A DNA stretch of 64,000 nt from the NCBI GenBank assembly GCA_035620375.1, contig DASPGX010000006.1, positions 6,156-70,155 on the forward strand, written 5' to 3'. Positions within the stretch are counted from its first letter, which is position 1. Every line of letters begins with the position of its first letter. The notes beneath the pieces are model-generated. The model ran no database searches, was not told where the DNA came from, and saw only the letters and a list, made by a program, of their open reading frames with translations. The DNA comes from Minisyncoccota bacterium. GTDB lineage: Bacteria > Patescibacteriota > Minisyncoccia > 2-02-FULL-40-12 > GWA2-44-9. Below are positions 48,474 through 58,081 of the stretch, piece by piece. The position numbers and the translations under genes are program-made.

Positions 48474-49073
48474 TTATTTTCCGTCGCGGTACAGGCCCCG
48501 TTCCCGGATATAGCGGGCGACGGCCGGCGTCAGATACGGAACGCCGGACTGTCCGGCGTTGATGAGCCGGCGGATGAACGTGCTGGAAACGTCTATCCAG
48601 GCGAATGCGTTGTCGATGAGCGCGGACCGGGGAGGAAGCCGGTCATTGAGCATCGTGCCCGGACGCTGGATGACCGCGAACTTACCCTCTTCAAAAAGCT
48701 CCAGCCCCTTTTCCCATGTCCGGGTCATGTCATGCAGCAGTTCGGAACTGATGATGAAATGGAATTCATGGCCGGGATGAGCCGATTCCAGCTCCTTCAT
48801 CGTGTCGTACGTCAGGGTGTGCACGGGGCGGTCCAGTTCCGCCCGCGAAACCGTCACCGGGACCGCAGCGTCGGTGAACAGCTCCTCGGCCATCCGGGTG
48901 AGCATGGCGAAGCGGTCTTCGCCCGGGGCGGAGATGAGCTTGTCGGCGCGGTCCGCGGACGGCATGAGCCACACCTCGTCGCAGGGAAAAAGGCGGATAA
49001 CCGCTTCAATGACTGATGCATGTCCGATGTGGGGAGGGGAGAACGACCCTCCGTATATGGCGATTCGTTTCAT
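48474..49073 (-). CDS. nadD: Nicotinate-nucleotide adenylyltransferase
   Basis: MKRIAIYGGSFSPPHIGH (HxGH cytidylyltransferase motif), about 199 aa. Start is taken at the internal ATG, not the track extension. Confidence 0.8.
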   Translation of the reverse strand: MKRIAIYGGSFSPPHIGHASVIEAVIRLFPCDEVWLMPSADRADKLISAPGEDRFAMLTRMAEELFTDAAVPVTVSRAELDRPVHTLTYDTMKELESAHPGHEFHFIISSELLHDMTRTWEKGLELFEEGKFAVIQRPGTMLNDRLPPRSALIDNAFAWIDVSSTFIRRLINAGQSGVPYLTPAVARYIRERGLYRDGK

Positions 49074-49141
49074 ACGGCAATGATATATGGAAACGGGTCC
49101 CGTCGTCACGACGGGACCCGGTGAACACTTCCGGCGTCGGC

Positions 49142-50440
49142 CTAATACCTCGGCTGTTTGCTGAAGGTACCGGTGTAGCCGAAGATGCGCTTGAACCGCT
49201 CCACGTCTTCGGGCTTGCCCATGGCCTTGTCCAGGTTGTCCGAGAGCTTCACGGTTTTGTGTCCGTTGCACTCCAGGAGTTTCATGACCAGGGACAGCGG
49301 CTCCAGATCCGGACCGAAATCGTTGGTCAGGTTGGTGCCCCAGCCGAACGTCACGGTGATGCGGCCGGAGAACCGCTCGTACAGCTCGCGGATGGTGTCC
49401 ACGTCCAGGCCGTCCGAGAAGACGATGAGCTTGGTACGCGGACTCACGCCGACTGACTCGTAGTACCGGATGAGCTTCTCGCCGTAGGCGAACGGGTCTC
49501 CCGAGTCCTGCCGCGTGCCTTTCCAGGCCGCGGCGCGCTCGGGGCCGAATGACTTCAGGAAGAAGTCCGTCCCGTACGTGTCCGACAGGGCCACCGACAG
49601 CGGCTGGGCGAAGTGTTCGTACCAGCGGTCAAACGTCGCGTTCTGGCTGGCCACGATGTCCTCGTTGCTGCCGTGCATGATGCCGGACATCCCCATGACC
49701 AGCTCGTGGGCGAACGTGCCCATGGGCACCGTGTGGTTTTCCATGGAGAGCATCACGTTGCTCGTGCCGCGGTACTGCGCCGGCCCCAGCTCGTTGAGCA
49801 GGACCTCGTTGACGTACCGCTGCCATGCCAGACAGGCGCGGCGGCGGGTGCCGAAGTCCACGATCGTAATGCCCGGGTACCGCTTGAGGATGTTGACCTT
49901 CTCCAGTAGACGGCTCTGCGCCTGGGCCCACACGCACTGCCGCTCGAACGGCGACAGCTTGGCGATGCAGTGCTCGAAGTACAGCTGGGCCACGACCTGC
50001 AGGACATGAATCTCCCACAGGGTCACCTCAAACCAGGAACCGCGGGCCTCGATGCTGTACGTCCCGTTGATTTCCCTGGTGAGCCGGTAGTCCGGCAGGC
50101 GGTAGTCACGGAGCGCGTCCACGAACGGCTGCTCGAACATCCGTCGGTTCACCTCGCCGTCCGCCGTCGTCTCGCTGGCGAAATGGCCGCCGAGGTACCG
50201 CAGCTCGGTCTCGTTGAACGACAGCGTCCGCGCATGGTCCAGCTCGCGCCTGATGTCCTCCTCGCGGAGAATGTGGCCGAGCTCCACGCGGGACGTGCGG
50301 TTCTTGAAGGCGAACTGCACCTGCGCGTGATGCATGTCCGGACGCGCATGGATGAGCGCCAGCATACTGAGCTTGTAGAAGTCATCGTCCGCCAGCGAGG
50401 TGACGATGGGACCTTCTCTGCGGAACGGGTCGTGCAGCAC
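49142..50440 (-). CDS. pncB: Nicotinate phosphoribosyltransferase
   Basis: PncB-family length and motifs (DFGTRR region). GTG start 6 nt after GAGGAGGAGG. Hairpin GGGTCCCGTCGTCACGACGGGACCC lies downstream at 49093-49117. Confidence 0.75.
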   Translation of the reverse strand: MLHDPFRREGPIVTSLADDDFYKLSMLALIHARPDMHHAQVQFAFKNRTSRVELGHILREEDIRRELDHARTLSFNETELRYLGGHFASETTADGEVNRRMFEQPFVDALRDYRLPDYRLTREINGTYSIEARGSWFEVTLWEIHVLQVVAQLYFEHCIAKLSPFERQCVWAQAQSRLLEKVNILKRYPGITIVDFGTRRRACLAWQRYVNEVLLNELGPAQYRGTSNVMLSMENHTVPMGTFAHELVMGMSGIMHGSNEDIVASQNATFDRWYEHFAQPLSVALSDTYGTDFFLKSFGPERAAAWKGTRQDSGDPFAYGEKLIRYYESVGVSPRTKLIVFSDGLDVDTIRELYERFSGRITVTFGWGTNLTNDFGPDLEPLSLVMKLLECNGHKTVKLSDNLDKAMGKPEDVERFKRIFGYTGTFSKQPRY

Positions 50441-50441
50441 G

Positions 50442-51050
50442 TTACGCCTCCTCCTCGGCGATGACCTGTGCGGTCGTGGTGAGGATGGCGCCCGCGGCGC
50501 GCATCTCCTCCAGGGCACGGTCGCCGTCACCGGGGTTCACGTCGACCGCTGCGACGGCGTCGGTGAGGACGCGTACCCGTCTGATGAACGGGAGCCGGCA
50601 TGCGTCCAGGACGCCGTCCTTGTCGCAGTAGTCGGTCGCCAGACCGCCGAGAAGCACGTCGTCCACACCTGCGTCTTCCAGGAACTGCACCGAGGTCCTG
50701 CCGTCGGGAACGTAGGCGTTCGCGCAAAGCGGGGAGTATCCGTCCTCGTCGTCGCGCATCGCCTTGGAGACGATGACCGCGTTCCGGCTGACCCTGAGGT
50801 CGTCGTGGAACTCGGCCCCGCGCGTGCCCTGGACGCAGTGCACGGGCCAGGGACCGCCGAACTCCGCGAAGTGGGTGGTCCGGCGGGGATGCCAGTCGCG
50901 GCTGATGAGCACCAGCCAGCCCTTGCGTTCCGCCAGGTCCTGCATCGCGTTGAGCGGACCCATTACGGCGTCGCCTCCCGCGACGGGCAGGGCGCCGCCC
51001 GGACAGAAGTCCTTCTGGGGGTCCACAATAATCAGCGCTGTTTTCGGCAT
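50442..51050 (-). CDS. pncA: Nicotinamidase (isochorismatase family)
   Basis: MPKTALIIVDPQKDFCPGGAL N-terminus and catalytic Cys region of isochorismatase-like hydrolases. Start coordinate is uncertain: the PncA-like ATG (MPKTALIIVD) reads as 51047-51049, which is 1 nt out of register with the ORF-track frame; probably a hand-indexing slip that could not be resolved. Confidence 0.75.
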   Translation of the reverse strand: MPKTALIIVDPQKDFCPGGALPVAGGDAVMGPLNAMQDLAERKGWLVLISRDWHPRRTTHFAEFGGPWPVHCVQGTRGAEFHDDLRVSRNAVIVSKAMRDDEDGYSPLCANAYVPDGRTSVQFLEDAGVDDVLLGGLATDYCDKDGVLDACRLPFIRRVRVLTDAVAAVDVNPGDGDRALEEMRAAGAILTTTAQVIAEEEA

Positions 51051-51101
51051 GGCTTGCCTTCCTTTCAAAATGTACGGTACACCGGCCGCTTCGGGCTCGG
51101 A

Positions 51102-51120
51102 TAGTGTACTGTATACACTA
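51102..51120. promoter_or_regulatory. Putative NrtR operator 1: TAGTGTA-ctgta-TACACTA (plus nearby TGTACgGTACA palindrome at 51071-51081)
   Basis: Perfect 7-bp arms with GT-N7-AC core, located between the Nudix-fusion gene stop and the pncA start. Confidence 0.55.
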
Positions 51121-51182
51121 TATACCCCCCGGCTCGGGAATGCAAGCGGCAAAAAGCCCCTCCGTTTCCGGAGGGGCCGTTG

Positions 51183-52205
51183 TCAGATGAGCCCGCGTGA
51201 GTGCAGGACGGGCAATGCCGCCAGGAGCTTCATGTCCACGAGCTGGTTCGCGGGCGGACGCTCCACGAACTCCACCAGGCCGTCCAGCGGGACGAGCAGT
51301 GTACGCAGGTCCTCGCTGCTTTCCAATTGCGGCTCGTGCAGCTGCACGACGTCCTTGGTGAAGAACACCGACATGACGTCGCTGCTGGCGCCGGCATTGA
51401 ACGGTCCCCGGAGGACCAGTTCCATCGGAGTGCCTCCGCCGTACCCGGTTTCCTCGGCCAGCTCGCGTTCGGCGAGCTTTTCGGCCGGTTCGCCGTCCCG
51501 GTCGGCAAGTCCCGCCGGCTTCTCTACGACCCACGCGTCATGCGGGACGCGGTAGGAGCTGACCAGGACGACCTGCCGGTCGCGGGTGAGCGCGAACACG
51601 GAGACGATGTCGCCGAACGTATTCCGGCGCACCGTTTCGTACCAGCGGACCTTACCGAGCTTATCCAGGTACTTCGTCGTCTCCACGCGGACATAGCCGC
51701 CGTTCCAGGCGACGGGCCGCGATAGGATGCGCTCTGAGCCGGTAGGCAGGGTCGCCTGCGCCACCGCCGCGCCGACGGCGCCCTGCAGTGACCATGAGTA
51801 GGGGATGCCGTACTCGTGACTGGCCGCTTCCCAGTACTGCATGTGCGGCGCATGGCGCGGAGCTCCGACGACCGCCTTGCCCGAGCGCATGAACATGCCG
51901 AACTCCACATTGGTGGTCATCGCCGGCATGGTGACCATGTCCCGGGGAACCCAGAACAGGACGACGTCCGCACGGTTCAGCCACCGGTGCTCCCAGCGGA
52001 CCTGCTCGGCATACTCCGGCCATCCGTCGCCCGGCGCGGGTTCGGGAACGATGACATTCCCGTTGAATCCCGTGTCTGCCAGTATCTGAAGAGCGGCGGG
52101 CCGCCACGAGGGGACCGGCCGTTCTTTGCGCGGGGTCGGCCCCGCCAGGAAGATGGTGGGCAGCCGCGCGTCGCGCGGCTCACCCGGAGTGTATACGATG
52201 TCCAT
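51183..52205 (-). CDS. Fusion protein: nucleoside 2-deoxyribosyltransferase-like (DNPH1/YtoQ-type) N-domain + NUDIX hydrolase C-domain (340 aa)
   Basis: N-terminal TIFLAGPTP...VVLFW pattern of the NDT-like fold. C-terminal Nudix box E-x7-REUxEExGU (GEPAEKLAERELAEETGY). AGGAG RBS. Confidence 0.65.
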   Translation of the reverse strand: MDIVYTPGEPRDARLPTIFLAGPTPRKERPVPSWRPAALQILADTGFNGNVIVPEPAPGDGWPEYAEQVRWEHRWLNRADVVLFWVPRDMVTMPAMTTNVEFGMFMRSGKAVVGAPRHAPHMQYWEAASHEYGIPYSWSLQGAVGAAVAQATLPTGSERILSRPVAWNGGYVRVETTKYLDKLGKVRWYETVRRNTFGDIVSVFALTRDRQVVLVSSYRVPHDAWVVEKPAGLADRDGEPAEKLAERELAEETGYGGGTPMELVLRGPFNAGASSDVMSVFFTKDVVQLHEPQLESSEDLRTLLVPLDGLVEFVERPPANQLVDMKLLAALPVLHSRGLI

Positions 52206-52208
52206 GGG

Positions 52209-53261
52209 TTACTCCTTGATGCCCAGCCGTGCGCACAGGCGTTCGGCGGTGTCCAGGATGCGTTCGCGGTGCGCCAGGCCGGCGACGAGATGCTCCGGGA
52301 ACAGCGCGGCGCCGTGCACGGCGCCCAGCATGCCGCCGACGATGGACGCGTTGGTGTCCGTATCCCCGCCGGCACTGATGGTGTCATAGAGCGTTTCCAC
52401 GCTGTCCGGATTGCGCAGGAACATGCCGTAGCAGAAGGGGAGCGTGAAGTTGACATGAAACCGGTCGCCGCCGAGGGTCGCATCCCATGCCTGGGGTGTG
52501 ACGAACGGCAGCATCGTTTTGAACGCGTTCAGGCCTTCCAGCCGCCAGTACAACTCCTGGCCGTGGTGCGAGACCGGACCGAAATCCGGTACGCCGTCCA
52601 GGGTTTCCACGATCTCACTGACCAGATACCGTCCGATGAGACCGGAGTGGCGCCGGGAGGAGAACGTCAGACAGAGGGCGATAGCCGATGCGTGCGCCAC
52701 GGCCGACATCCCGCCGACGTCGGTGCCGTGTGTCATGTGCGCCAAAGCGATGATGTCATGCTCCAGTCCTTCCCAGGACTGCCGGGGCCCGTCCCAGGGT
52801 CCGGGGGACGCCAGATACAGGCCGACAGGCGCCACCTTCATGGGCAGGGCATTTCCCATGCCCCGCTTGGGGTTGTTGCTGATGCCTGATTCCGTGGGCT
52901 TCTCGCCCTCGCGCAGGCGCCGCAAAGCGTCCCGCGTAGAACCTCCAAGACCGAGGTCGCCGAACTCGTCCAAAAGGACGAGGTGCCACTTCGCCTGGTT
53001 CTCCAGGTCCAGGCGCCCCGTCTCGATGATGCTCTCGGCGACGGCCAGCGTCAGCTGGGTGTCATCCGACCACATGCCCGCCGGTTTTTCCGAGGACCAC
53101 TTGTGGGTCGGGTTCTGCCGGTAATCGGTGATGCGTCCGAACTCCGTCCGGATGCGGCCCGCGTCGTACGTTTCCACGGGAACGCCCAGAGCATCGCCGA
53201 TGGCGACGCCCAGAAACATGCCCCGGACCTGGTCACGGACCGGCGAATCTCCCAGTCGCAT
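52209..53261 (-). CDS. ADP-ribosylglycohydrolase family protein
   Basis: N-terminal VRGMFLGVAIGDALGVPVE metal-binding motif and overall ARH/DraG-like helical architecture, about 350 aa. Confidence 0.75.
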   Translation of the reverse strand: MRLGDSPVRDQVRGMFLGVAIGDALGVPVETYDAGRIRTEFGRITDYRQNPTHKWSSEKPAGMWSDDTQLTLAVAESIIETGRLDLENQAKWHLVLLDEFGDLGLGGSTRDALRRLREGEKPTESGISNNPKRGMGNALPMKVAPVGLYLASPGPWDGPRQSWEGLEHDIIALAHMTHGTDVGGMSAVAHASAIALCLTFSSRRHSGLIGRYLVSEIVETLDGVPDFGPVSHHGQELYWRLEGLNAFKTMLPFVTPQAWDATLGGDRFHVNFTLPFCYGMFLRNPDSVETLYDTISAGGDTDTNASIVGGMLGAVHGAALFPEHLVAGLAHRERILDTAERLCARLGIKE

Positions 53262-53277
53262 AATTACCTTCCTTTTT

Positions 53278-53296
53278 AGTGTACGAGATACACTAT
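53278..53296. promoter_or_regulatory. Putative NrtR operator 2: TAGTGTA-cgaga-TACACTA
   Basis: Same 19-bp palindrome, 17 nt upstream of the ARH start codon (minus strand). Confidence 0.55.
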
Positions 53297-53319
53297 ATTA
53301 TCACCGCGGAGGGCCGGAT

Positions 53320-53856
53320 TCAAGAGGACGGACCACCCGGCGAGAACTCGGAGGCGAGAAGACCCATGCGCACAATATCGTGGTATTCGCCCTGCCAGAA
53401 ATATTCCTCGCGGAGGACGCCTTCTTGCCGGAAGCCCAATTTTTCGTAAATATGCAGCCCCTTTTTGTTTTCAGCCCAGACCATAAGCCACACCTTATTG
53501 AGCCCGAATTCGCCGAACGCTTTCTCCAGGAGCAGTCCAAGCGCGTGTTGCGCATAGCCCATGCCTGAGTGCTCCGGTTTGATGAAGAGTGACAATCTGC
53601 CGAGCTTGTTCTCCCAGCTGATCTGATTCACGGCCGTCTGTCCGACGTACGCCCCGTTGCCGGAACGGAAGATGGAAAACACACGGTCGTTAGGACTGGC
53701 GATGAGTCGTCCGATGAACGCCGCTTCCTCCTCCCGTGAAATGGAACGGTCGAAATGCTGGAAATTTTTGACGACGTCCGGGTCATTGACCCACGTCATC
53801 ACGTCGTCCAGGTGCTCGGCGGCCAGAGGCCGTAATTCCAAGCTTGAAGTGTTCAT
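53320..53856 (-). CDS. GNAT-family N-acetyltransferase (RimJ/RimL-like)
   Basis: Acetyl-CoA-binding motif region (RSGNGAYVGQTAV...GMGYAQHALGLLLEKAF). Confidence 0.7.
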   Translation of the reverse strand: MNTSSLELRPLAAEHLDDVMTWVNDPDVVKNFQHFDRSISREEEAAFIGRLIASPNDRVFSIFRSGNGAYVGQTAVNQISWENKLGRLSLFIKPEHSGMGYAQHALGLLLEKAFGEFGLNKVWLMVWAENKKGLHIYEKLGFRQEGVLREEYFWQGEYHDIVRMGLLASEFSPGGPSS

Positions 53857-54039
53857 CGGTATTTATGATTGACCGGATATGCGCTTGCGCGAGGCCGAGG
53901 CACGGGGAATGCGGCGAGGGAGTCGTACTCAACGTACGTCGACCGAGCCGCAGGGGCCCCGTAACGAAGGTATCGCGCAAGCCCGGAGGGTCCGGCCTGG
54001 CAGGGCATCAGTCCCGCCCTGAGGCCGGACGCGCGCCGG

Positions 54040-54714
54040 TCAGAGCGCTTTAGTGAGTTCCGTCGGCTGCTTGGAGACAAACGCATACAGCCGTGCCGGC
54101 CGGCGCTGGCCGCCCTTCGTGGTGCGGCCCGTGGACCGGATGAGTCCCAGGGACAGGAATTTCTTGCGGAAGTTCCGTTTGTCCAGCTTCCGGCCGAGCA
54201 CCGCCTCGTACACGCGCTGAAGTTCGGTCAGCGTGAACGTCCGGGGGAGCAGGGAATAAGCCGCGTTCGTGTAGCCGAGTTTGGCGCGTACGCGCTTGAG
54301 CGCGTAGCCGATGATGCGCTTATGGTCAAACGCCAACTTGGGCGGCCGCGAAGCCGGAAACAGCGTGGGCGACTGCAGCGTTGCCGATGTCCGCGGCTTG
54401 AGCCGGGAAACCGGCACCAGGGCGACGTAGGCGACCGAAGGGATGTCTCCCCGCGGGTCACGGCCGGACGAGTCGAACGTATACAACTGTTCCACATACA
54501 CGCCCCGTACTCCCGACTTCTCGCGCAGGACGCGCTCCACCGTTCCCGTCAGCGTTTCTCCGGTTCTCGGAAATCCTCCCGGAAGCGCCCAGGCGCCTTT
54601 GAACGGCACCTTTGCACGCTTAATAAGGAGGACGTTGAGCGCGTCATCGTGCACGGTGAAAACAACCACGTCCGTGGAGATGGAGAGTTCGCGGTATCCG
54701 GGAAAACGTTTCAT
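54040..54714 (-). CDS. nrtR: NrtR-like Nudix-related transcriptional regulator
   Basis: N-terminal Nudix fold with degenerate Nudix box (GETLTGTVERVLREKSGV). C-terminal winged-helix with FTLTELQRVYEAVLGRKLDKRNFRKK motif characteristic of the NrtR DNA-binding domain. Immediately downstream of nadE. Confidence 0.7.
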   Translation of the reverse strand: MKRFPGYRELSISTDVVVFTVHDDALNVLLIKRAKVPFKGAWALPGGFPRTGETLTGTVERVLREKSGVRGVYVEQLYTFDSSGRDPRGDIPSVAYVALVPVSRLKPRTSATLQSPTLFPASRPPKLAFDHKRIIGYALKRVRAKLGYTNAAYSLLPRTFTLTELQRVYEAVLGRKLDKRNFRKKFLSLGLIRSTGRTTKGGQRRPARLYAFVSKQPTELTKAL

Positions 54715-54724
54715 GATATGTATG

Positions 54725-56683
54725 TTACTTCGTCGCGTTCAACTCGGCCAGCCACGCGTCGGCCCCGACGTCCGACGGCATCCGCCAGTCCCCGCGCGGG
54801 GAAAGGGCGACCGAGCCGACCTTGGGACCGTCAGGCATCACCGAGCGCTTGAACTGGTTGCCGAAGAACCGCGCGATGAAGACCTTCAGCCATTTTGTGA
54901 TGACCGCCGGGCGGTAGGTGTCCCTGAATGCCTGCTCGGCGAGCCAGCGGACTTTGCGCGGGTCCGAGCCCCAGCGCTGGGAGTGATACAGGAAGAAGTC
55001 GTGCAGTTCGTAGGGGCCGATGATGTCCTCCGTCTTCTGGCCGATGTCCTGGCCGTTCCGGTTCGCCAGTTCCGGCGATACCGGCGTGTCCAGAACGTCC
55101 AGCAGGGCCCGCCGCGCGCGTGAGAATTCCTTCTGTTCGGCCGCCCAGGCGACCACGTAGCGCACAAGCGTCTTGGGAACCGACGCGTTCACGCCGTAGT
55201 GGCTGATGTGGTCGCCGTTGAACGTGCACCATCCCAGAGCGATTTCCGAGAGGTCCCCGGTTCCCACGACGATGCCGCCTTTCTGGTTGGCGCGGTCGAA
55301 CAGCAGCATCGTCCGGTACCGGGCCTGTGCGTTCTCAAACGTAACATCCTCCGTTTTTCCGTCATGGCCCAAATCCGCCAGATGCCGGCGCACGCCCTTG
55401 GTGATGTCGATTTCATCCAGCGTGACGCCGAGCGCGTTGGCCAGCGCGTAGGCATTGCCCTTGGTCCGGCGCGACGTGGCGAATCCCGGCATCGTCAGGC
55501 AGTTGAGGTTCCGCGCCGGAAGACCCGAGATGCGCAATGCGCGGACGGCCACCAATAGCGCGAGCGTGGAATCCAGTCCGCCGGAGAGCCCGAGAACAAG
55601 CTTGCCGGAGCCCGCGACGCGCATCCGGCGCGCAAGGCCGGCAGCCTGTATGGCGAGAATCTCCCGGGCCCGCCGGTCGCGTTCAGCGGGGTCCGACGGA
55701 ACGAACGGATGAGCGTCAATGAATCGCGCCGTCGACGTCTGTGTCGCCGGACGCACGGGAACCTCAATCCGCCGCCACTGCGCGGCGGGAAGATGATGCA
55801 GGCTCTCCTTGAAACTGGTCGTTCTCCGGCGTTCCAGCATCAGGTGCTGGACGTCCACGTCGGTGACCGCCATGGACGGGCCGGGGATGAAGCGCTCGGT
55901 CTGCGCGAGCACCGAGCCGTTCTCGGCGATGACCGCGTGTCCTCCGAACACCACGTCCGTCGTGCTTTCACCGGCACCGCACGACGTGTAGATGTAGGCG
56001 GACATCGTACGCGCGGACTGCTGGCGGATGAGCTCCAGGCGGTAATCCGCCTTACCGACCAAATCATTGGATGCCGAAAGATTAACGATAACCGTCGCTC
56101 CGGCCAGAGCGGCGGCGGTGCTCGGGGGCAGGGGAGCCCACAGGTCCTCGCAAATTTCCACGGCGAGCATCGCGCCGGGCAGCGCGGGTATGTCGAACAG
56201 CAGGTCGGTGCCGACGGGAACATCACGGCCGCCGAAACGGACCGTGTTTTGCGGAAGATCGCGGGCCGAAGCGAACCACCGCTCTTCATAGAACTCCTTA
56301 TAGTTGGGGATGTACGTCTTGGGCACGATTCCGAGCACCCGGCCTCCGTGCAGAATCGCGGCGCAGTTGTACAGCGCCCCGCCGATCTGCAACGGCAAAC
56401 CGACGGCGGTAAGCGCACGGACGCGTGCGGTGCGCCGCGCAAGCTCCGCAAGACCGGCGCGGGACCGGGCGAGCAGGGTCTCCTGGTGGAACAGGTCGCC
56501 CGCCGTATAGCCGGTCAGCGCGAGCTCGGGTAGCACGATGACGGCCGCTCCGGCGTCCGCCGCGCGTTTCACCGCAGCCGCGCAATGCCCGACATTTGCG
56601 GGGACGTCTGCCACGGCGACATCGGGAACGGCGGCGGCGACCCGCAGGAGTCCGAATGCAGTGATGGAATCGCGTATCGGCAT
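54725..56683 (-). CDS. nadE: Glutamine-dependent NAD+ synthetase (nitrilase + synthetase domains, 652 aa)
   Basis: N-terminal CN-hydrolase domain and C-terminal PP-loop (VLGLSGGLDSTLALL). Confidence 0.88.
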   Translation of the reverse strand: MPIRDSITAFGLLRVAAAVPDVAVADVPANVGHCAAAVKRAADAGAAVIVLPELALTGYTAGDLFHQETLLARSRAGLAELARRTARVRALTAVGLPLQIGGALYNCAAILHGGRVLGIVPKTYIPNYKEFYEERWFASARDLPQNTVRFGGRDVPVGTDLLFDIPALPGAMLAVEICEDLWAPLPPSTAAALAGATVIVNLSASNDLVGKADYRLELIRQQSARTMSAYIYTSCGAGESTTDVVFGGHAVIAENGSVLAQTERFIPGPSMAVTDVDVQHLMLERRRTTSFKESLHHLPAAQWRRIEVPVRPATQTSTARFIDAHPFVPSDPAERDRRAREILAIQAAGLARRMRVAGSGKLVLGLSGGLDSTLALLVAVRALRISGLPARNLNCLTMPGFATSRRTKGNAYALANALGVTLDEIDITKGVRRHLADLGHDGKTEDVTFENAQARYRTMLLFDRANQKGGIVVGTGDLSEIALGWCTFNGDHISHYGVNASVPKTLVRYVVAWAAEQKEFSRARRALLDVLDTPVSPELANRNGQDIGQKTEDIIGPYELHDFFLYHSQRWGSDPRKVRWLAEQAFRDTYRPAVITKWLKVFIARFFGNQFKRSVMPDGPKVGSVALSPRGDWRMPSDVGADAWLAELNATK

Positions 56684-56701
56684 AGTGTATTTTATACACT
56701 A
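56683..56701. promoter_or_regulatory. Putative NrtR operator 3: TAGTGTA-tttta-TACACTA overlapping the nadE start codon
   Basis: Same palindrome. The first T of its reverse complement is the A of the nadE ATG. Confidence 0.55.
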
Positions 56702-56893
56702 ATTCTATGCCTGCGGGGCCGGTATGTCAACCCCACACCCATGCGGCCAGATTGCTTCCGGCCGCTCATGAAAAGGACTCGGTTAGTCCTCGCGTCGGTT
56801 GCGCCCGGGCCTGACGAGGTATGCGCACGAAGCATCGGGGCGGCTGGCCGATGGGTGAGGGTCAAGCTCCCGGATTTCTGATAGCATGGGCGC

Positions 56894-58081
56894 ATGGCGA
56901 CGGCTCCCGAACCCGTATTCTCGGTATCCGAATTCCTGGACCTGGTCATTGAACTGCTCGGACAGCGGGACTTTGAGGTTCAGGGAGAGGTGACCGGCGC
57001 GAAATCCCATCCGACCGGATTCTATTTTTCCCTCAAGGACGAGCGGGGCGGGGGCCTCATGGACTGTTACATGAGTCCGTATGCATACCGCGGGGCGGGT
57101 ATCGCGCTGGAGGACGGCATGCTGGTTAAGGTGGGCGGTATCGCCTCCATATACAAACCCAAGGGCCGGTTCTCATTCCGCGTGCAGACCATCCAGTTGG
57201 CGGGAGAGGGGTCGCTGAAGAAGGCGTACGAGGCGCTCAAGAAAAAACTCACGGAAGAGGGATTGTTTGACCGCAAACGGGCCTTGCCGGAATTCATTTC
57301 CCGCGTCGGGCTCATTACTTCTCGGACGGGAGCCGTTATTGACGATTTCCGCCGGAATCTCGCTCCGTTGGGCCTGTCGGTTCTGCATTACGATGTCCGG
57401 GTGGAGGGCGCGCAGGCGGTGCCGCAGGTCAAGCGGGCGCTTGAATGGTTCGGCAGGCATGCCGAACGGGTGGATGCCCTGGTGTTGGTCCGGGGAGGCG
57501 GTTCCATGGAGGACCTGCAGGCGTTTAACGACGAGTACGTGGTCCGCGGGGTATTCGGTTCGCGGGTGCCGACCGTCGTGAGCATCGGCCATGACCGTGA
57601 TGTGCCGCTGGCGCAGATGGCGGCGGACGCCTCGGCATCCACGCCGACGGCGACGGCGCACGTCATTAACGCGAGCTGGGACCGGCTCCGGCGGCTTCCC
57701 GAGACGTCACAAAAATTGGTGTTCGCGTACGACACCGCCCTTTCGGCCGTCCGCGCCGATGTGGGCGGCCATGCGCACCGGCTGGCGACGCAGATGGCGC
57801 GCATCGCCGGCGCGGCGGACCGTATTCAGCAGCGATTAGGTCATGCGCTTGCGCATGTGGGCCACCGCATCGGACATCTTCGCGACGCCGTGGAGCGCCA
57901 CGACAGGTTCCTGGCGTCGGTCAGTCCGGAACGGCAACTCCGGTTGGGGTACAGCATCGTCACGGACGGAGCGGGGTCCGTTATCCGCGATGCGGCACAG
58001 CTGAAGCCGGGACACGCGGTGCGGACGCGCCTGGCAAGGGGGGCTTTCGTTTCGGAGGTGAAAGAATTATCATCGGAATAA
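56894..58081 (+). CDS. xseA: Exodeoxyribonuclease VII large subunit
   Basis: N-terminal OB fold (VSEFLDLVIELL...VQGEVTG), catalytic domain, about 395 aa. Directly followed by xseB. Confidence 0.85.
   Translation: MATAPEPVFSVSEFLDLVIELLGQRDFEVQGEVTGAKSHPTGFYFSLKDERGGGLMDCYMSPYAYRGAGIALEDGMLVKVGGIASIYKPKGRFSFRVQTIQLAGEGSLKKAYEALKKKLTEEGLFDRKRALPEFISRVGLITSRTGAVIDDFRRNLAPLGLSVLHYDVRVEGAQAVPQVKRALEWFGRHAERVDALVLVRGGGSMEDLQAFNDEYVVRGVFGSRVPTVVSIGHDRDVPLAQMAADASASTPTATAHVINASWDRLRRLPETSQKLVFAYDTALSAVRADVGGHAHRLATQMARIAGAADRIQQRLGHALAHVGHRIGHLRDAVERHDRFLASVSPERQLRLGYSIVTDGAGSVIRDAAQLKPGHAVRTRLARGAFVSEVKELSSE

Follow-up and report, generated by a model that had tools for sequence, protein, structure and literature searches.

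Three palindromes in a Paceibacterota NAD gene cluster as probable operators of the NrtR repressor encoded among them

A cluster of NAD genes, all on the minus strand, carries three copies of the same palindrome, and the question raised by this locus is what reads them. An exact search of the window (the whole 64-kb stretch of DNA that was analysed) finds TAGTGTA-N5-TACACTA three times, with no match in any of 100 dinucleotide-preserving shuffles, and no further copy of the 19-mer is found in the 64 kb at up to three mismatches (0.15 expected). A first-pass annotation had taken the three copies to mark a putative NrtR regulon. Its count stands, as do its coordinates for the first and third sites, but the second, given as 53278-53296, was shifted by one nucleotide and lies at 53277-53295. 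It had also raised the prospect of the motif being abundant away from NAD genes, whereas all three copies in the 64 kb lie in the NAD cluster.

The sites do precede pncA-pncB, the ADP-ribosylglycohydrolase gene and nadE-nrtR, as had been proposed. The ATG of pncA (51050) follows O-pncA at a distance of 51 nt, and that of the ADP-ribosylglycohydrolase gene (53261) follows O-ADPRGH at 15 nt; the start codon of nadE takes its A from the final base of O-nadE on the gene strand (plus-strand base 56683). The window was also scored with a 21-column weight matrix that was trained on sites from other genomes only. The next-best position after the three operators reaches 6.6 bits, which is noise, given that shuffled windows peak at 3.7-8.2 bits with this matrix. 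Within the 19-mer, positions 5-6 and 14-15 hold the GT and AC of the GT-N7-AC core noted earlier, and the half-site and spacing of the operator are GTGT-N7-ACAC. The search of the window also agrees with the annotation that no copy precedes nadD. A shorter, fourth palindrome that it had listed, TGTACgGTACA, does exist at 51071-51081, but was rejected as a meaningful site, since palindromes of this 5+1+5 class are common in the window (n=112, 1.75 per kb) and this one is absent from the equivalent place in the related loci L008, L006 and L082.

Table 1. Coordinates of the predicted operators, promoters, terminator and genes of the cluster
Feature	Position	Strand	Details
nadE-nrtR promoter	56702..56730	-	TTGACA-17-TAGAAT, 11/12; promoter scan and script
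Operator O-nadE	56683..56701	.	TAGTGTATTTTATACACTA; exact match, 36.6 bits
nadE, glutamine-dependent NAD+ synthetase, 652 aa	54725..56683	-	Pfam CN_hydrolase and NAD_synthase
nrtR, Nudix-related transcriptional regulator, 224 aa	54040..54714	-	PF21906 1e-25, PF00293 1.3e-11
GNAT acetyltransferase, 178 aa	53320..53856	-	Pfam Acetyltransf_3 7e-21
Putative promoter at O-ADPRGH	53295..53323	-	TTGAAT-17-TAATAT, 8/12; script
Operator O-ADPRGH	53277..53295	.	TAGTGTACGAGATACACTA; exact match, 28.1 bits
ADP-ribosylglycohydrolase, DraG/ARH3-like, 350 aa	52209..53261	-	PF03747 2.5e-52
Ndt-like/Nudix fusion, 340 aa	51183..52205	-	PF15891 2e-14, PF00293 4e-8
Intrinsic terminator of ADPRGH/Ndt-Nudix operon	51150..51178	-	10-bp GC stem, GAAA loop, UUUUU tail
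Putative pncA promoter	51117..51145	-	TTGCAT-17-TATAGT, 8/12; script
Operator O-pncA	51102..51120	.	TAGTGTACTGTATACACTA; exact match, 30.6 bits
pncA, nicotinamidase, 202 aa	50442..51050	-	Pfam Isochorismatase 7e-23
pncB, nicotinate phosphoribosyltransferase	49142..50440	-	Pfam NAPRTase
nadD, nicotinate-nucleotide adenylyltransferase	48474..49073	-	Pfam and NCBIfam; without its own operator

The annotation had also placed an NrtR-like, Nudix-related regulator in the cluster, and had asked whether it might lack the NrtR winged helix. The nrtR product contains both a NUDIX domain and the winged helix, scoring 90 bits for PF21906 (cut-off 27). It matches P0001 of a Candidatus Paceibacterota MAG at 100% identity. 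Its Nudix box is degenerate (G..E..RVLREKSGV, with RVLREK in place of REUXEE), a described trait of NrtR regulators (PMC4666351). Its closest solved relatives are BtAraR (5bs6, 1e-35) and the Shewanella NrtR (3gz5, 2e-31). The BtAraR-DNA crystal structure contains the DNA GCAAAAGTGTTACTTTTACACCCATGC, and residues K179, R180, N181, K184, K204 and R205 “define the GTGT motif” (PMC4666351). An ungapped alignment to BtAraR places K179, R180, N181, K184, R204 and R205 at these positions in the window NrtR, such that five of the six contacts are identical and K204 is replaced by R.

These residues bear on whether some other DNA-binding protein reads the palindromes, with the proximity of nrtR a coincidence, which is very improbable. 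Every comparison locus used below was chosen for carrying nrtR, a point in favour of such a protein, but in the solved NrtR-family/DNA complex identical recognition residues read a half-site and spacing equal to these. The motif also fits the published NrtR family consensus, as the annotation had claimed for its core; NrtR motifs are described as 21-bp palindromes with a GT-N7-AC core, situated within promoters or immediately downstream of them (PMC2330246). A search of the window found no NadR homologue, and the window motif differs from the enterobacterial NadR box, TGTTTA-N6-TAAACA.

The peptide patterns used to fetch the comparison loci cover the recognition helix (DKRNF[RQ]KK), and therefore the NrtRs of all these loci share one DNA-reading type. 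The 80 NrtR loci (1.17 Mb) contain 10 sites that match exactly, 32 with one mismatch and 36 with two, against a simulated expectation of 0, 0.2 and 1.6. Genes downstream of these sites encode NadE, PncA, PncB, NadA, PnuC, an NAMPT-like protein, NrtR and, transcribed divergently, NAD kinase. The syntenic locus L082, with an NrtR that is 62% identical, has sites at the same three positions (0.03 expected), including one 16 nt upstream of the ADP_ribosyl_GH gene. Sites precede both nadE and pncA in L008 and L006, orthologous sites before pncA or pncB occur in L006, L008, L082 and many others, and L008 has an extra site before a pnuC operon that includes the Ndt-Nudix gene. The operator/ATG junction TACACTAtg at nadE recurs in L008 and L082. 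Motif positions T4, G5, T6, A14, C15 and A16 are about 98-100% conserved across genomes, and positions 0 and 20, which were unused for selection, hold T/A at 69%, so that the motif extends to 21 bp. This comparative footprinting is independent support, and so is the agreement with the DNA that the same recognition residues contact in a crystal structure. The three palindromes are very probably operators of the NrtR repressor encoded in the cluster. The putative NrtR regulon of the first-pass annotation is supported, and survived both of its proposed refutations.

A sigma-70-like promoter is predicted at each of the three operators, its -10 box touching or overlapping the operator. The -10 box of the nadE-nrtR promoter stops at the edge of O-nadE, and the layout of TTGAC(A/T/C)-17-(-10) followed by an operator is common to L008, L006, L004, L012 and L082. 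The -10 box of the putative pncA promoter overlaps operator positions 1-4, and the overlap of TATAGT with the operator is also present in L008 (TTGACA-18-TATAGT, 11/12) and L082 (TTGACG-18-TATAGT, 10/12). At O-ADPRGH, the -10 box overlaps operator position 1; this promoter is put forward as putative because it falls below the standard scan threshold. The standard promoter scan makes no call for either of the 8/12 promoters, at sites 1 and 2.

It is exceedingly improbable that the palindromes are not DNA operators but act as RNA hairpins in 5' leaders, with an effect on translation or stability. If fully transcribed, they would form hairpins of 8-9 bp (-6.7 to -7.8 kcal/mol, z -2.9 to -7.1), and the nadE hairpin would take in the A of its AUG. 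However, the left arm adjoins or shares bases with the predicted -10 box at each site, such that transcription should start within the palindrome and the left arm should be missing from the RNA. The arm sequence itself is conserved across genomes, whereas an RNA stem would predict pairing with free sequence, and in loci labelled archaeal the TATA box precedes the motif and the ATG follows it.

Three units are predicted to be served by these operators: nadE-nrtR, possibly with the GNAT gene; the ADP-ribosylglycohydrolase gene with the Ndt/ADP-ribose-pyrophosphatase fusion; and pncA-pncB, possibly with nadD. In the first, NadE matches NCBIfam NF002730 at 876 bits (cut-off 473), and nrtR is probably autoregulated through O-nadE. 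The GNAT gene lies directly 3' of nrtR, as it does in L002, L003 and L008, but its membership of the nadE-nrtR transcript is uncertain because a structured spacer of 183 nt follows nrtR. In the second, the PDB relatives of the ADP-ribosylglycohydrolase are DraG and ARH3. The fusion protein joins an N-terminal nucleoside 2-deoxyribosyltransferase-like domain to a C-terminal ADP-ribose/ADP-sugar pyrophosphatase Nudix domain, with matches to NUDT5 and ADPR pyrophosphatases in the PDB (4e-14) and to NCBIfam NudE (2.5e-9), and its Nudix box, GLADRDGEPAEKLAERELAEETGY, keeps REUXEE intact. The terminator of this operon folds at -23.5 kcal/mol (z = -3.3), and L082 has an equivalent hairpin and T-run at the same place. 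In the third, PncA matches the NCBIfam nicotinamidase model at 2.8e-40, under its cut-off, and PncB matches NF003704 at 399.7 (cut-off 379). The pncB start, placed by aligning to the N-terminus of the L082 PncB, is a GTG 1 nt past the pncA stop codon. The gap between pncB and nadD holds a 12-bp hairpin (49094-49120, -25 kcal/mol) and, by promoter scan, a weak promoter-like GTGACG-18-TATCAT at 49109-49080; nadD is probably in the regulon only via read-through from pncA-pncB, if at all.

In the proposed mechanism, the two half-sites (A-GTGT ... ACAC-T) would each be occupied by one winged-helix domain of an NrtR dimer. Given that the operators abut or overlap the -10 hexamers and cover the expected transcription starts, bound NrtR is proposed to keep RNA polymerase off the promoters of all three units, including its own; we infer both repression itself and the exact transcription starts. 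A nucleotide effector would bind the catalytically dead Nudix domain and bring NrtR off the DNA, and its release would induce ADP-ribose turnover together with nicotinamide salvage and the amidation that completes NAD synthesis. The effector is probably ADP-ribose, a product of NAD consumption, although this is not certain because the window NrtR scores far under the cut-off of the NCBI NrtR equivalog model (153.6 bits against 400) and the closest of its relatives with a solved structure senses arabinose. The second operon is predicted both to release ADP-ribose, by the glycohydrolase, and to destroy it, by the active Nudix domain, and so could reset the signal.

NrtR might bind these sites and yet respond to NAD (or NaAD/NMN) as a co-repressor, or to another ribose-containing ligand, which we consider unlikely. 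Effectors do vary in the family, from ADP-ribose in Shewanella and Synechocystis to NAD for Corynebacterium NdnR and L-arabinose for BtAraR (PMC4666351), and the window NrtR is nearer in sequence to BtAraR than to the Shewanella NrtR and misses a cut-off set for an ADPR-responsive equivalog. However, the phosphate and ribose contacts made to ADP-ribose by R41, K76 and R98 of the Shewanella NrtR are kept as R33, K66 and R88, and the cleft-filling substitutions L67 and G89 of arabinose-binding BtAraR, which stand where the window NrtR has K66 and R88, are absent. The presence in the regulon of enzymes that release and hydrolyse ADP-ribose also fits ADP-ribose as the signal.

The Shewanella oneidensis NrtR (PDB 3gz5/3gz6/3gz8) is an ADP-ribose-responsive repressor of prs-nadV. 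It shares its fold and domain order with the window NrtR, but its recognition helix is QGKSFRRR rather than DKRNFRKK, its group has a divergent operator in the literature, and its targets also differ. BtAraR from Bacteroides thetaiotaomicron, also of the NrtR family (PDB 5bs6/5dd4/5ddg/5deq; PMC4666351), has an identical recognition helix (DKRNFRK), the same wing (K/R-R) and the same DNA half-site and spacing. BtAraR senses L-arabinose and controls arabinose utilisation, and its nucleotide cleft is filled (F36, L67, G89) where the window protein has K35, K66 and R88, as in ADP-ribose-binding NrtR. The Mycobacterium smegmatis NrtR represses NAD biosynthesis genes as well as its own gene and is likewise released by ADP-ribose, but its targets are the de novo genes nadABC and not those of salvage (PMC6800001). 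Its acetylated K134 (LVAkLSYTN) aligns to a conserved K145 in the window NrtR (RAKLGYTN); its acetylation is non-enzymatic, via acetyl phosphate (PMC6800001), whereas the window has a putative GNAT gene after nrtR.

The regulons described by Rodionov et al. 2008 (PMC2330246) share with the window the regulator architecture of a Nudix-like domain and a winged helix, the GT-N7-AC palindrome in or just after promoters, and the targets pncA, pncB, nadE, nadD, nrtR and a draG-type ADP-ribosylglycohydrolase. The host here is a Patescibacteria/CPR (Paceibacterota) MAG, a group outside that study, and no mention of NrtR in CPR or DPANN was found in the literature searched for that pairing. The window regulon also has the Ndt-like/ADPR-pyrophosphatase fusion, “deoxyribosyltransferase” having no occurrence in PMC2330246, and, unlike the regulons described there, it would join NAD salvage, nadE and a draG-like gene in one regulon. 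The cluster adds one more case, well supported but ordinary, to a known regulatory system.

The palindrome TAGTGTA-N5-TACACTA occurs in three exact copies in the 64-kb window. The first-pass annotation had reported three identical 19-bp sites, and an exact search recovers all of them, with the second displaced by one nucleotide from the position first assigned to it. None of 100 dinucleotide-preserving shuffles of the window yields an exact match, and no further copy is found in the window at up to three mismatches, where 0.15 would be expected. A weight matrix of 21 columns, built exclusively from sites in genomes other than that of the window, scores the three copies at 36.6, 30.6 and 28.1 bits, and the next best position in the window reaches 6.6 bits, inside the range of 3.7-8.2 bits given by shuffled windows. 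In a window of 63% G+C, chance cannot account for three copies of an A+T-rich pattern of 14 bases. Neither the mismatch search nor the matrix scan detects a weaker site before nadD, the GNAT gene or xseA or elsewhere in the window, in keeping with the original remark that no copy precedes nadD.

According to Rodionov et al. (PMC2330246), most NrtR motifs are palindromic over 21 bp, share a GT-N7-AC core and are located within promoters or immediately behind them. The core, also noted in the first pass, is present in the window palindromes as G5-T6 and A14-C15 with seven nucleotides between. Positions 0 and 20, which were outside the search pattern, are T and A at 69% in the sites of relatives, such that the motif reaches the published 21 bp. 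Judged by sequence, the three palindromes are predicted NrtR operators, matching the definition, which calls for roughly 19-21 palindromic bp and a conserved GT-N7-AC core. The operator of the enterobacterial, HTH-bearing NadR (18 bp, TGTTTA-N6-TAAACA) was considered and rejected, as it differs from the window motif in both sequence and spacing; a tblastn search of the window with the NadR-like protein of comparison locus L008 finds nothing. A fourth palindrome, TGTACgGTACA at 51071-51081, had also been singled out but proves ordinary, being one of 112 such palindromes in the window. In its best register it differs from the operator at 4 of 14 positions and has the wrong spacing (N3), and it is absent from the related loci L008, L006 and L082. 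It is at most a degenerate remnant.

The 224-aa regulator encoded in the cluster consists of a Nudix-like domain (PF00293, residues 16-114, 1.3e-11) fused to an NrtR-type winged-helix DNA-binding domain (PF21906, residues 153-212, 1e-25; score 90 bits, cut-off 27). The earlier description of an NrtR-like, Nudix-related protein is therefore upheld, including the winged helix expected on HMM search. In its Nudix box, GFPRTGETLTGTVERVLREKSGV, RVLREK stands in place of REUXEE, and two of the three glutamates of that motif have been substituted. This impaired signature, in which GX5EX7REUXEEXGU is not conserved, would fit a role as sensor rather than enzyme, and a degenerate Nudix signature is a described property of NrtR regulators (PMC4666351). 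The protein is 100% identical to P0001, a homologue from a Candidatus Paceibacterota MAG. It scores 153.6 bits against NCBIfam NF050029, an equivalog model for ADPR-responsive repressors with a curated cut-off of 400, and so it is a family member rather than an equivalog of the gammaproteobacterial protein or the seed group of that model.

The best solved relative is BtAraR (5bs6; 1e-35, residues 12-215), followed by the NrtR of Shewanella (3gz5; 2e-31, residues 10-212), and either alignment spans the whole length of the window regulator. The DNA in the BtAraR crystal structure is GCAAAAGTGTTACTTTTACACCCATGC, that is GTGT-N7-ACAC, and the GTGT motif is defined by K179, R180, N181 and K184 of the recognition helix and K204 and R205 of the wing (PMC4666351). 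The window operators read A-GTGT-N7-ACAC-T, and an ungapped alignment with this region of BtAraR places K179, R180, N181, K184, R204 and R205 in the window regulator; position 204 is thus the only one to differ, as a K/R exchange. Half-site, spacing and contact residues of the window pair all agree with the BtAraR-DNA complex.

Genes and predicted operators in the window and in comparison loci (L numbers) that encode NrtR relatives
Feature	Locus	Position	Strand	Annotation
nadD	window	48474-49073	-	Pfam + NCBIfam
pncB	window	49142-50440	-	Pfam + NCBIfam, above cut-off
pncA	window	50442-51050	-	Pfam + NCBIfam
nucleoside-2-deoxyribosyltransferase-like (Ndt-like)/Nudix fusion	window	51183-52205	-	Pfam
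ADP-ribosylglycohydrolase	window	52209-53261	-	Pfam; resembles DraG and ARH3
GNAT acetyltransferase	window	53320-53856	-	Pfam
nrtR	window	54040-54714	-	NUDIX + PF21906
nadE	window	54725-56683	-	glutamine-dependent NAD synthetase; Pfam + NCBIfam, above equivalog cut-off
operator, pncA	window	51102-51120		exact copy
operator, glycohydrolase	window	53277-53295		exact copy
operator, nadE	window	56683-56701		exact copy
Ndt-like gene	L082	9484-10500
Ndt-like gene	L008	10381-11592
Ndt-like gene	L006	11653-12825
Ndt-like gene	L005	10760-11161
Ndt-like gene; nearby 181-aa gene	L054	8390-8905, 6723-7268
GNAT gene	L002	1199-1693
GNAT gene	L003	7469-8023
GNAT gene	L008	8093-8599
pncA operator	L016	10678		Saccharibacteria label
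pncA operators	L018	12637, 12685		Saccharibacteria label
pncA operators	L028	9758, 9806		Saccharibacteria label
pncA operators	L031	10687, 10728		Saccharibacteria label
pncA operators	L034	696, 737		Saccharibacteria label
pncA operators	L045	11562, 11606		Saccharibacteria label
pncA operators	L051	15775, 15808		Saccharibacteria label
operators	L010	5973, 9941		DPANN label
operator	L017	1995		DPANN label
operators	L022	5693, 7539		DPANN label
operator	L040	3374		DPANN label
operator	L050	9962		DPANN label
operators	L054	2870, 9970		DPANN label
operator	L058	2116		DPANN label
operators	L080	8595, 9913		DPANN label

All genes of the NAD cluster are on the minus strand, and the divergent neighbour of nadE, about 190 nt away, is xseA (56894-58081). 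With a strong terminator (-23.5 kcal/mol, U5 tail) behind the fusion gene, each of the three operators heads a transcription unit of its own. In the fusion, the Nudix half is similar to ADP-sugar and ADP-ribose pyrophosphatases (NUDT5 and bacterial ADPRases, 4e-14) and, unlike the regulator with its degenerate box, retains an intact Nudix box, RELAEETGY. The gap between pncB and nadD (49074-49141) contains a GC hairpin of 12 bp (49094-49120) with UUUCC behind it. A weak promoter-like sequence, GTGACG-18-TATCAT, precedes nadD with its -10 ending 6 nt 5' of the ATG, and no Shine-Dalgarno sequence is present at the nadD start; by these features nadD may be expressed independently of NrtR, from a leaderless transcript of its own. 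The 183-nt spacer between nrtR and the GNAT gene (53857-54039) is very G+C-rich and forms long hairpins, with 140 nt folding at -72.9 kcal/mol (z = -3.0). It has no U-tract and no Rfam match, and may serve in termination or processing or be a repeat element. An Rfam scan of the window returns only four tRNAs, with no riboswitch near the cluster. No match in the window was found by tblastn with the PnuC, NadR-like, Prs, NadA, NadK, NAMPT-like, FAD-oxidoreductase, HD and radical-SAM proteins of relatives. The G+C contents of the window (63%), L082 (65%) and the Patescibacteria locus L067 (67%) are unusually high for this group.

By a promoter scan and script, the -10 boxes of the three window units end at 0 to +4, counted from the first base of the operator. 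The nadE promoter, TTGACA-17-TAGAAT (11/12), ends on the base directly preceding the operator. The glycohydrolase promoter, TTGAAT-17-TAATAT, overlaps operator position 1 and the pncA promoter, TTGCAT-17-TATAGT, overlaps positions 1-4; both are putative, given that their matches (8/12) are below the threshold of a standard scan. The same design as at the window pncA is seen as TTGACA-18-TATAGT in L008 and TTGACG-18-TATAGT in L082, and TTGAC(A/T/C)-17-(-10) followed by the operator precedes nadE in L008, L006, L004, L012 and L082. The operators are thereby predicted to overlap promoter elements or to sit between promoter and start codon of the NAD genes and nrtR. The A of the nadE start codon doubles as the final base of the operator (TACACTAtg) in the window (56681-56701), L008 (5434-5454) and L082 (4490-4510), and the same junction occurs at nrtR in L050 (9962-9982). 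No Shine-Dalgarno sequence is found at this nadE start, and the other two window operons have GGAAGG; therefore the nadE leader would be very short or absent.

An NrtR dimer bound at the operator would mask the edge of the -10 box and the transcription start, and repression would occur by classical occlusion, in agreement with the proposal in the family literature (PMC2330246). The palindromes could instead act as RNA hairpins, as they could fold if transcribed whole, yet the predicted starts fall inside them and it is arm sequence, not pairing, that is conserved, and so an RNA role was rejected.

The comparison set comprises 80 loci (1.17 Mb) retrieved by peptide patterns, the recognition helix among them, and is thereby biased towards regulators that read this DNA. 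Within it the motif is present in 10 exact, 32 one-mismatch and 36 two-mismatch copies, where first-order Markov simulation predicts 0, 0.2 and 1.6; at up to one mismatch there are 42 sites against about 0.2 expected. Genes directly 3' of these 42 sites include those for NadE, PncA, PncB, NrtR, NadA, PnuC, a NAMPT-like protein and NH3-dependent NadE, and NAD kinase is divergent from some. The best relative is L082, with an NrtR 62% identical to that of the window and the gene order xseA, nadE-nrtR, ADP-ribosylglycohydrolase and Ndt/Nudix fusion, terminator, pncB; all three of its operators are at window-equivalent positions (0.03 expected). The gene orders of L008 and L006 are like that of the window, with operators before nadE and pncA in both, and a third in L008 precedes a pnuC-nadR-Ndt/Nudix operon. 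Spacers vary between genomes and arms are kept, as expected of a protein-binding site. By this comparison, the operator is conserved at the orthologous places in further regulator-encoding genomes. The locus of P0002, the closest relative at 72% identity, is uninformative, as its 2.8 kb (L081) lack upstream regions and contain no sites.

NAD kinase is divergent from nadE in L008 (4587-5423, minus strand) and L006 (7166-8005, minus strand) and starts 11-20 nt from the shared operator, so that in these two relatives the regulon may extend to NADP synthesis. Saccharibacteria-labelled loci have two operators before pncA, 33-48 nt apart, and the spacer of the upstream one holds a perfect -35 box (TAGTG-TTGACA-ATACAaTA), and the regulator would thereby occupy the -35 as well as the -10/start region.

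The ADP-ribose contacts of Shewanella NrtR, as relayed in PMC4666351, are R41, N43, K76 and R98. By alignment, R41, K76 and R98 are conserved as R33, K66 and R88 of the window regulator and N43 is replaced by K35; the adenine contacts Y10 and F15 named for the same protein fall outside the aligned region. R33, K66 and R88 are invariant across 27 CPR homologues, whereas the arabinose-sensing BtAraR has F36, L67 and G89 at the places of K35, K66 and R88. Domain predictions give the second operon one ADP-ribose-releasing and one ADP-ribose-hydrolysing enzyme. An NAD-type ligand might act as co-repressor instead, as it does for NdnR of Corynebacterium (PMC4666351); with the contact residues and operon content as they are, ADP-ribose is the most likely inducer of the window NrtR.

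The uncharacterised Nuc_deoxyri_tr2-like domain of the fusion recurs in NrtR clusters of CPR loci. In the window and L082 an ADPR-pyrophosphatase-type Nudix domain is fused to it; the Nudix match is weak in the L008 homologue, none is found in that of L006, and L054 has a separate 181-aa gene nearby with no Pfam match. The L008 gene sits in one operon with pnuC and a NadR-like gene, and a radical-SAM gene adjoins the Ndt-like gene in L006 and L054. The Ndt-like protein may cleave an N-glycosidic bond of an NAD-related nucleotide.

In the window, and likewise in the Paceibacteria-like loci L002, L003 and L008, the gene directly 3' of nrtR encodes a GNAT. Acetylation of K134 (LVAkLSYTN) has been described in the NrtR of M. 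smegmatis, where this lysine is needed for full DNA binding (PMC6800001), and its equivalent, window K145, is invariant. The GNAT protein scores far below the cut-offs of all its nearest NCBIfam models, spermidine and PseH-type acetyltransferases, which leaves a link to NrtR acetylation as guesswork; a dedicated NrtR acetyltransferase was rejected as a reading and kept as speculation.

Loci labelled Woesearchaeota, Pacearchaeota and Nanobdellati (DPANN) have the same TAGTGTA-N5-TACACTA box. Here a BRE/TATA-like element takes the place of the -10 box and lies 0-5 nt 5' of the operator, for example aaaACATTTATATAttggt; no TTGACA box was found at these operators, and in most an ATG follows within 0-10 nt. 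The targets include nadA, an Mqo/DAO-like FAD oxidoreductase, pncB-pncA-nadE-...-nrtR, a NAMPT-like gene and nrtR, and one locus contains an STT3/AglB-type oligosaccharyltransferase. If the labels hold, the regulator/operator pair appears to be used with archaeal-type promoters. These operators and the GNAT/K145 points are leads, not findings. A wider reading, which we hold tentatively and consider somewhat doubtful, is that the window regulon is one instance of an NrtR/operator pair shared between the two domains by ultrasmall episymbiont lineages, the CPR bacteria and DPANN archaea, both with an ADP-ribose cycling module (ADP-ribosylglycohydrolase, Ndt-like domain and ADPR pyrophosphatase), and that the Paceibacteria GNAT could acetylate K145.

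Among the papers listed by non-exhaustive searches on NrtR in CPR or DPANN, none mentions NrtR. Patescibacteria have tiny genomes with few regulators, and genetic systems are not known for most of their lineages. Therefore, a regulon whose regulator, operator, promoters and targets can be read from sequence gives annotation a useful anchor. The regulon suggests that these cells sense NAD consumption, coordinating nicotinamide salvage with ADP-ribose turnover, and it yields a precise operator, GTGT-N7-ACAC, and a context for the uncharacterised Ndt-like/ADPR-pyrophosphatase fusion. Understanding of how NrtR acts is unchanged. The regulator type, operator type and mode of action were described in the 2008 reconstruction in other phyla, with pncA, pncB, nadE, nadD, a draG-like gene and autoregulation among the targets (PMC2330246). 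New relative to that work are the Patescibacteria host, the combination of NAD salvage and ADP-ribose turnover in one regulon, and the inclusion of the Ndt-like/ADPR-pyrophosphatase fusion.
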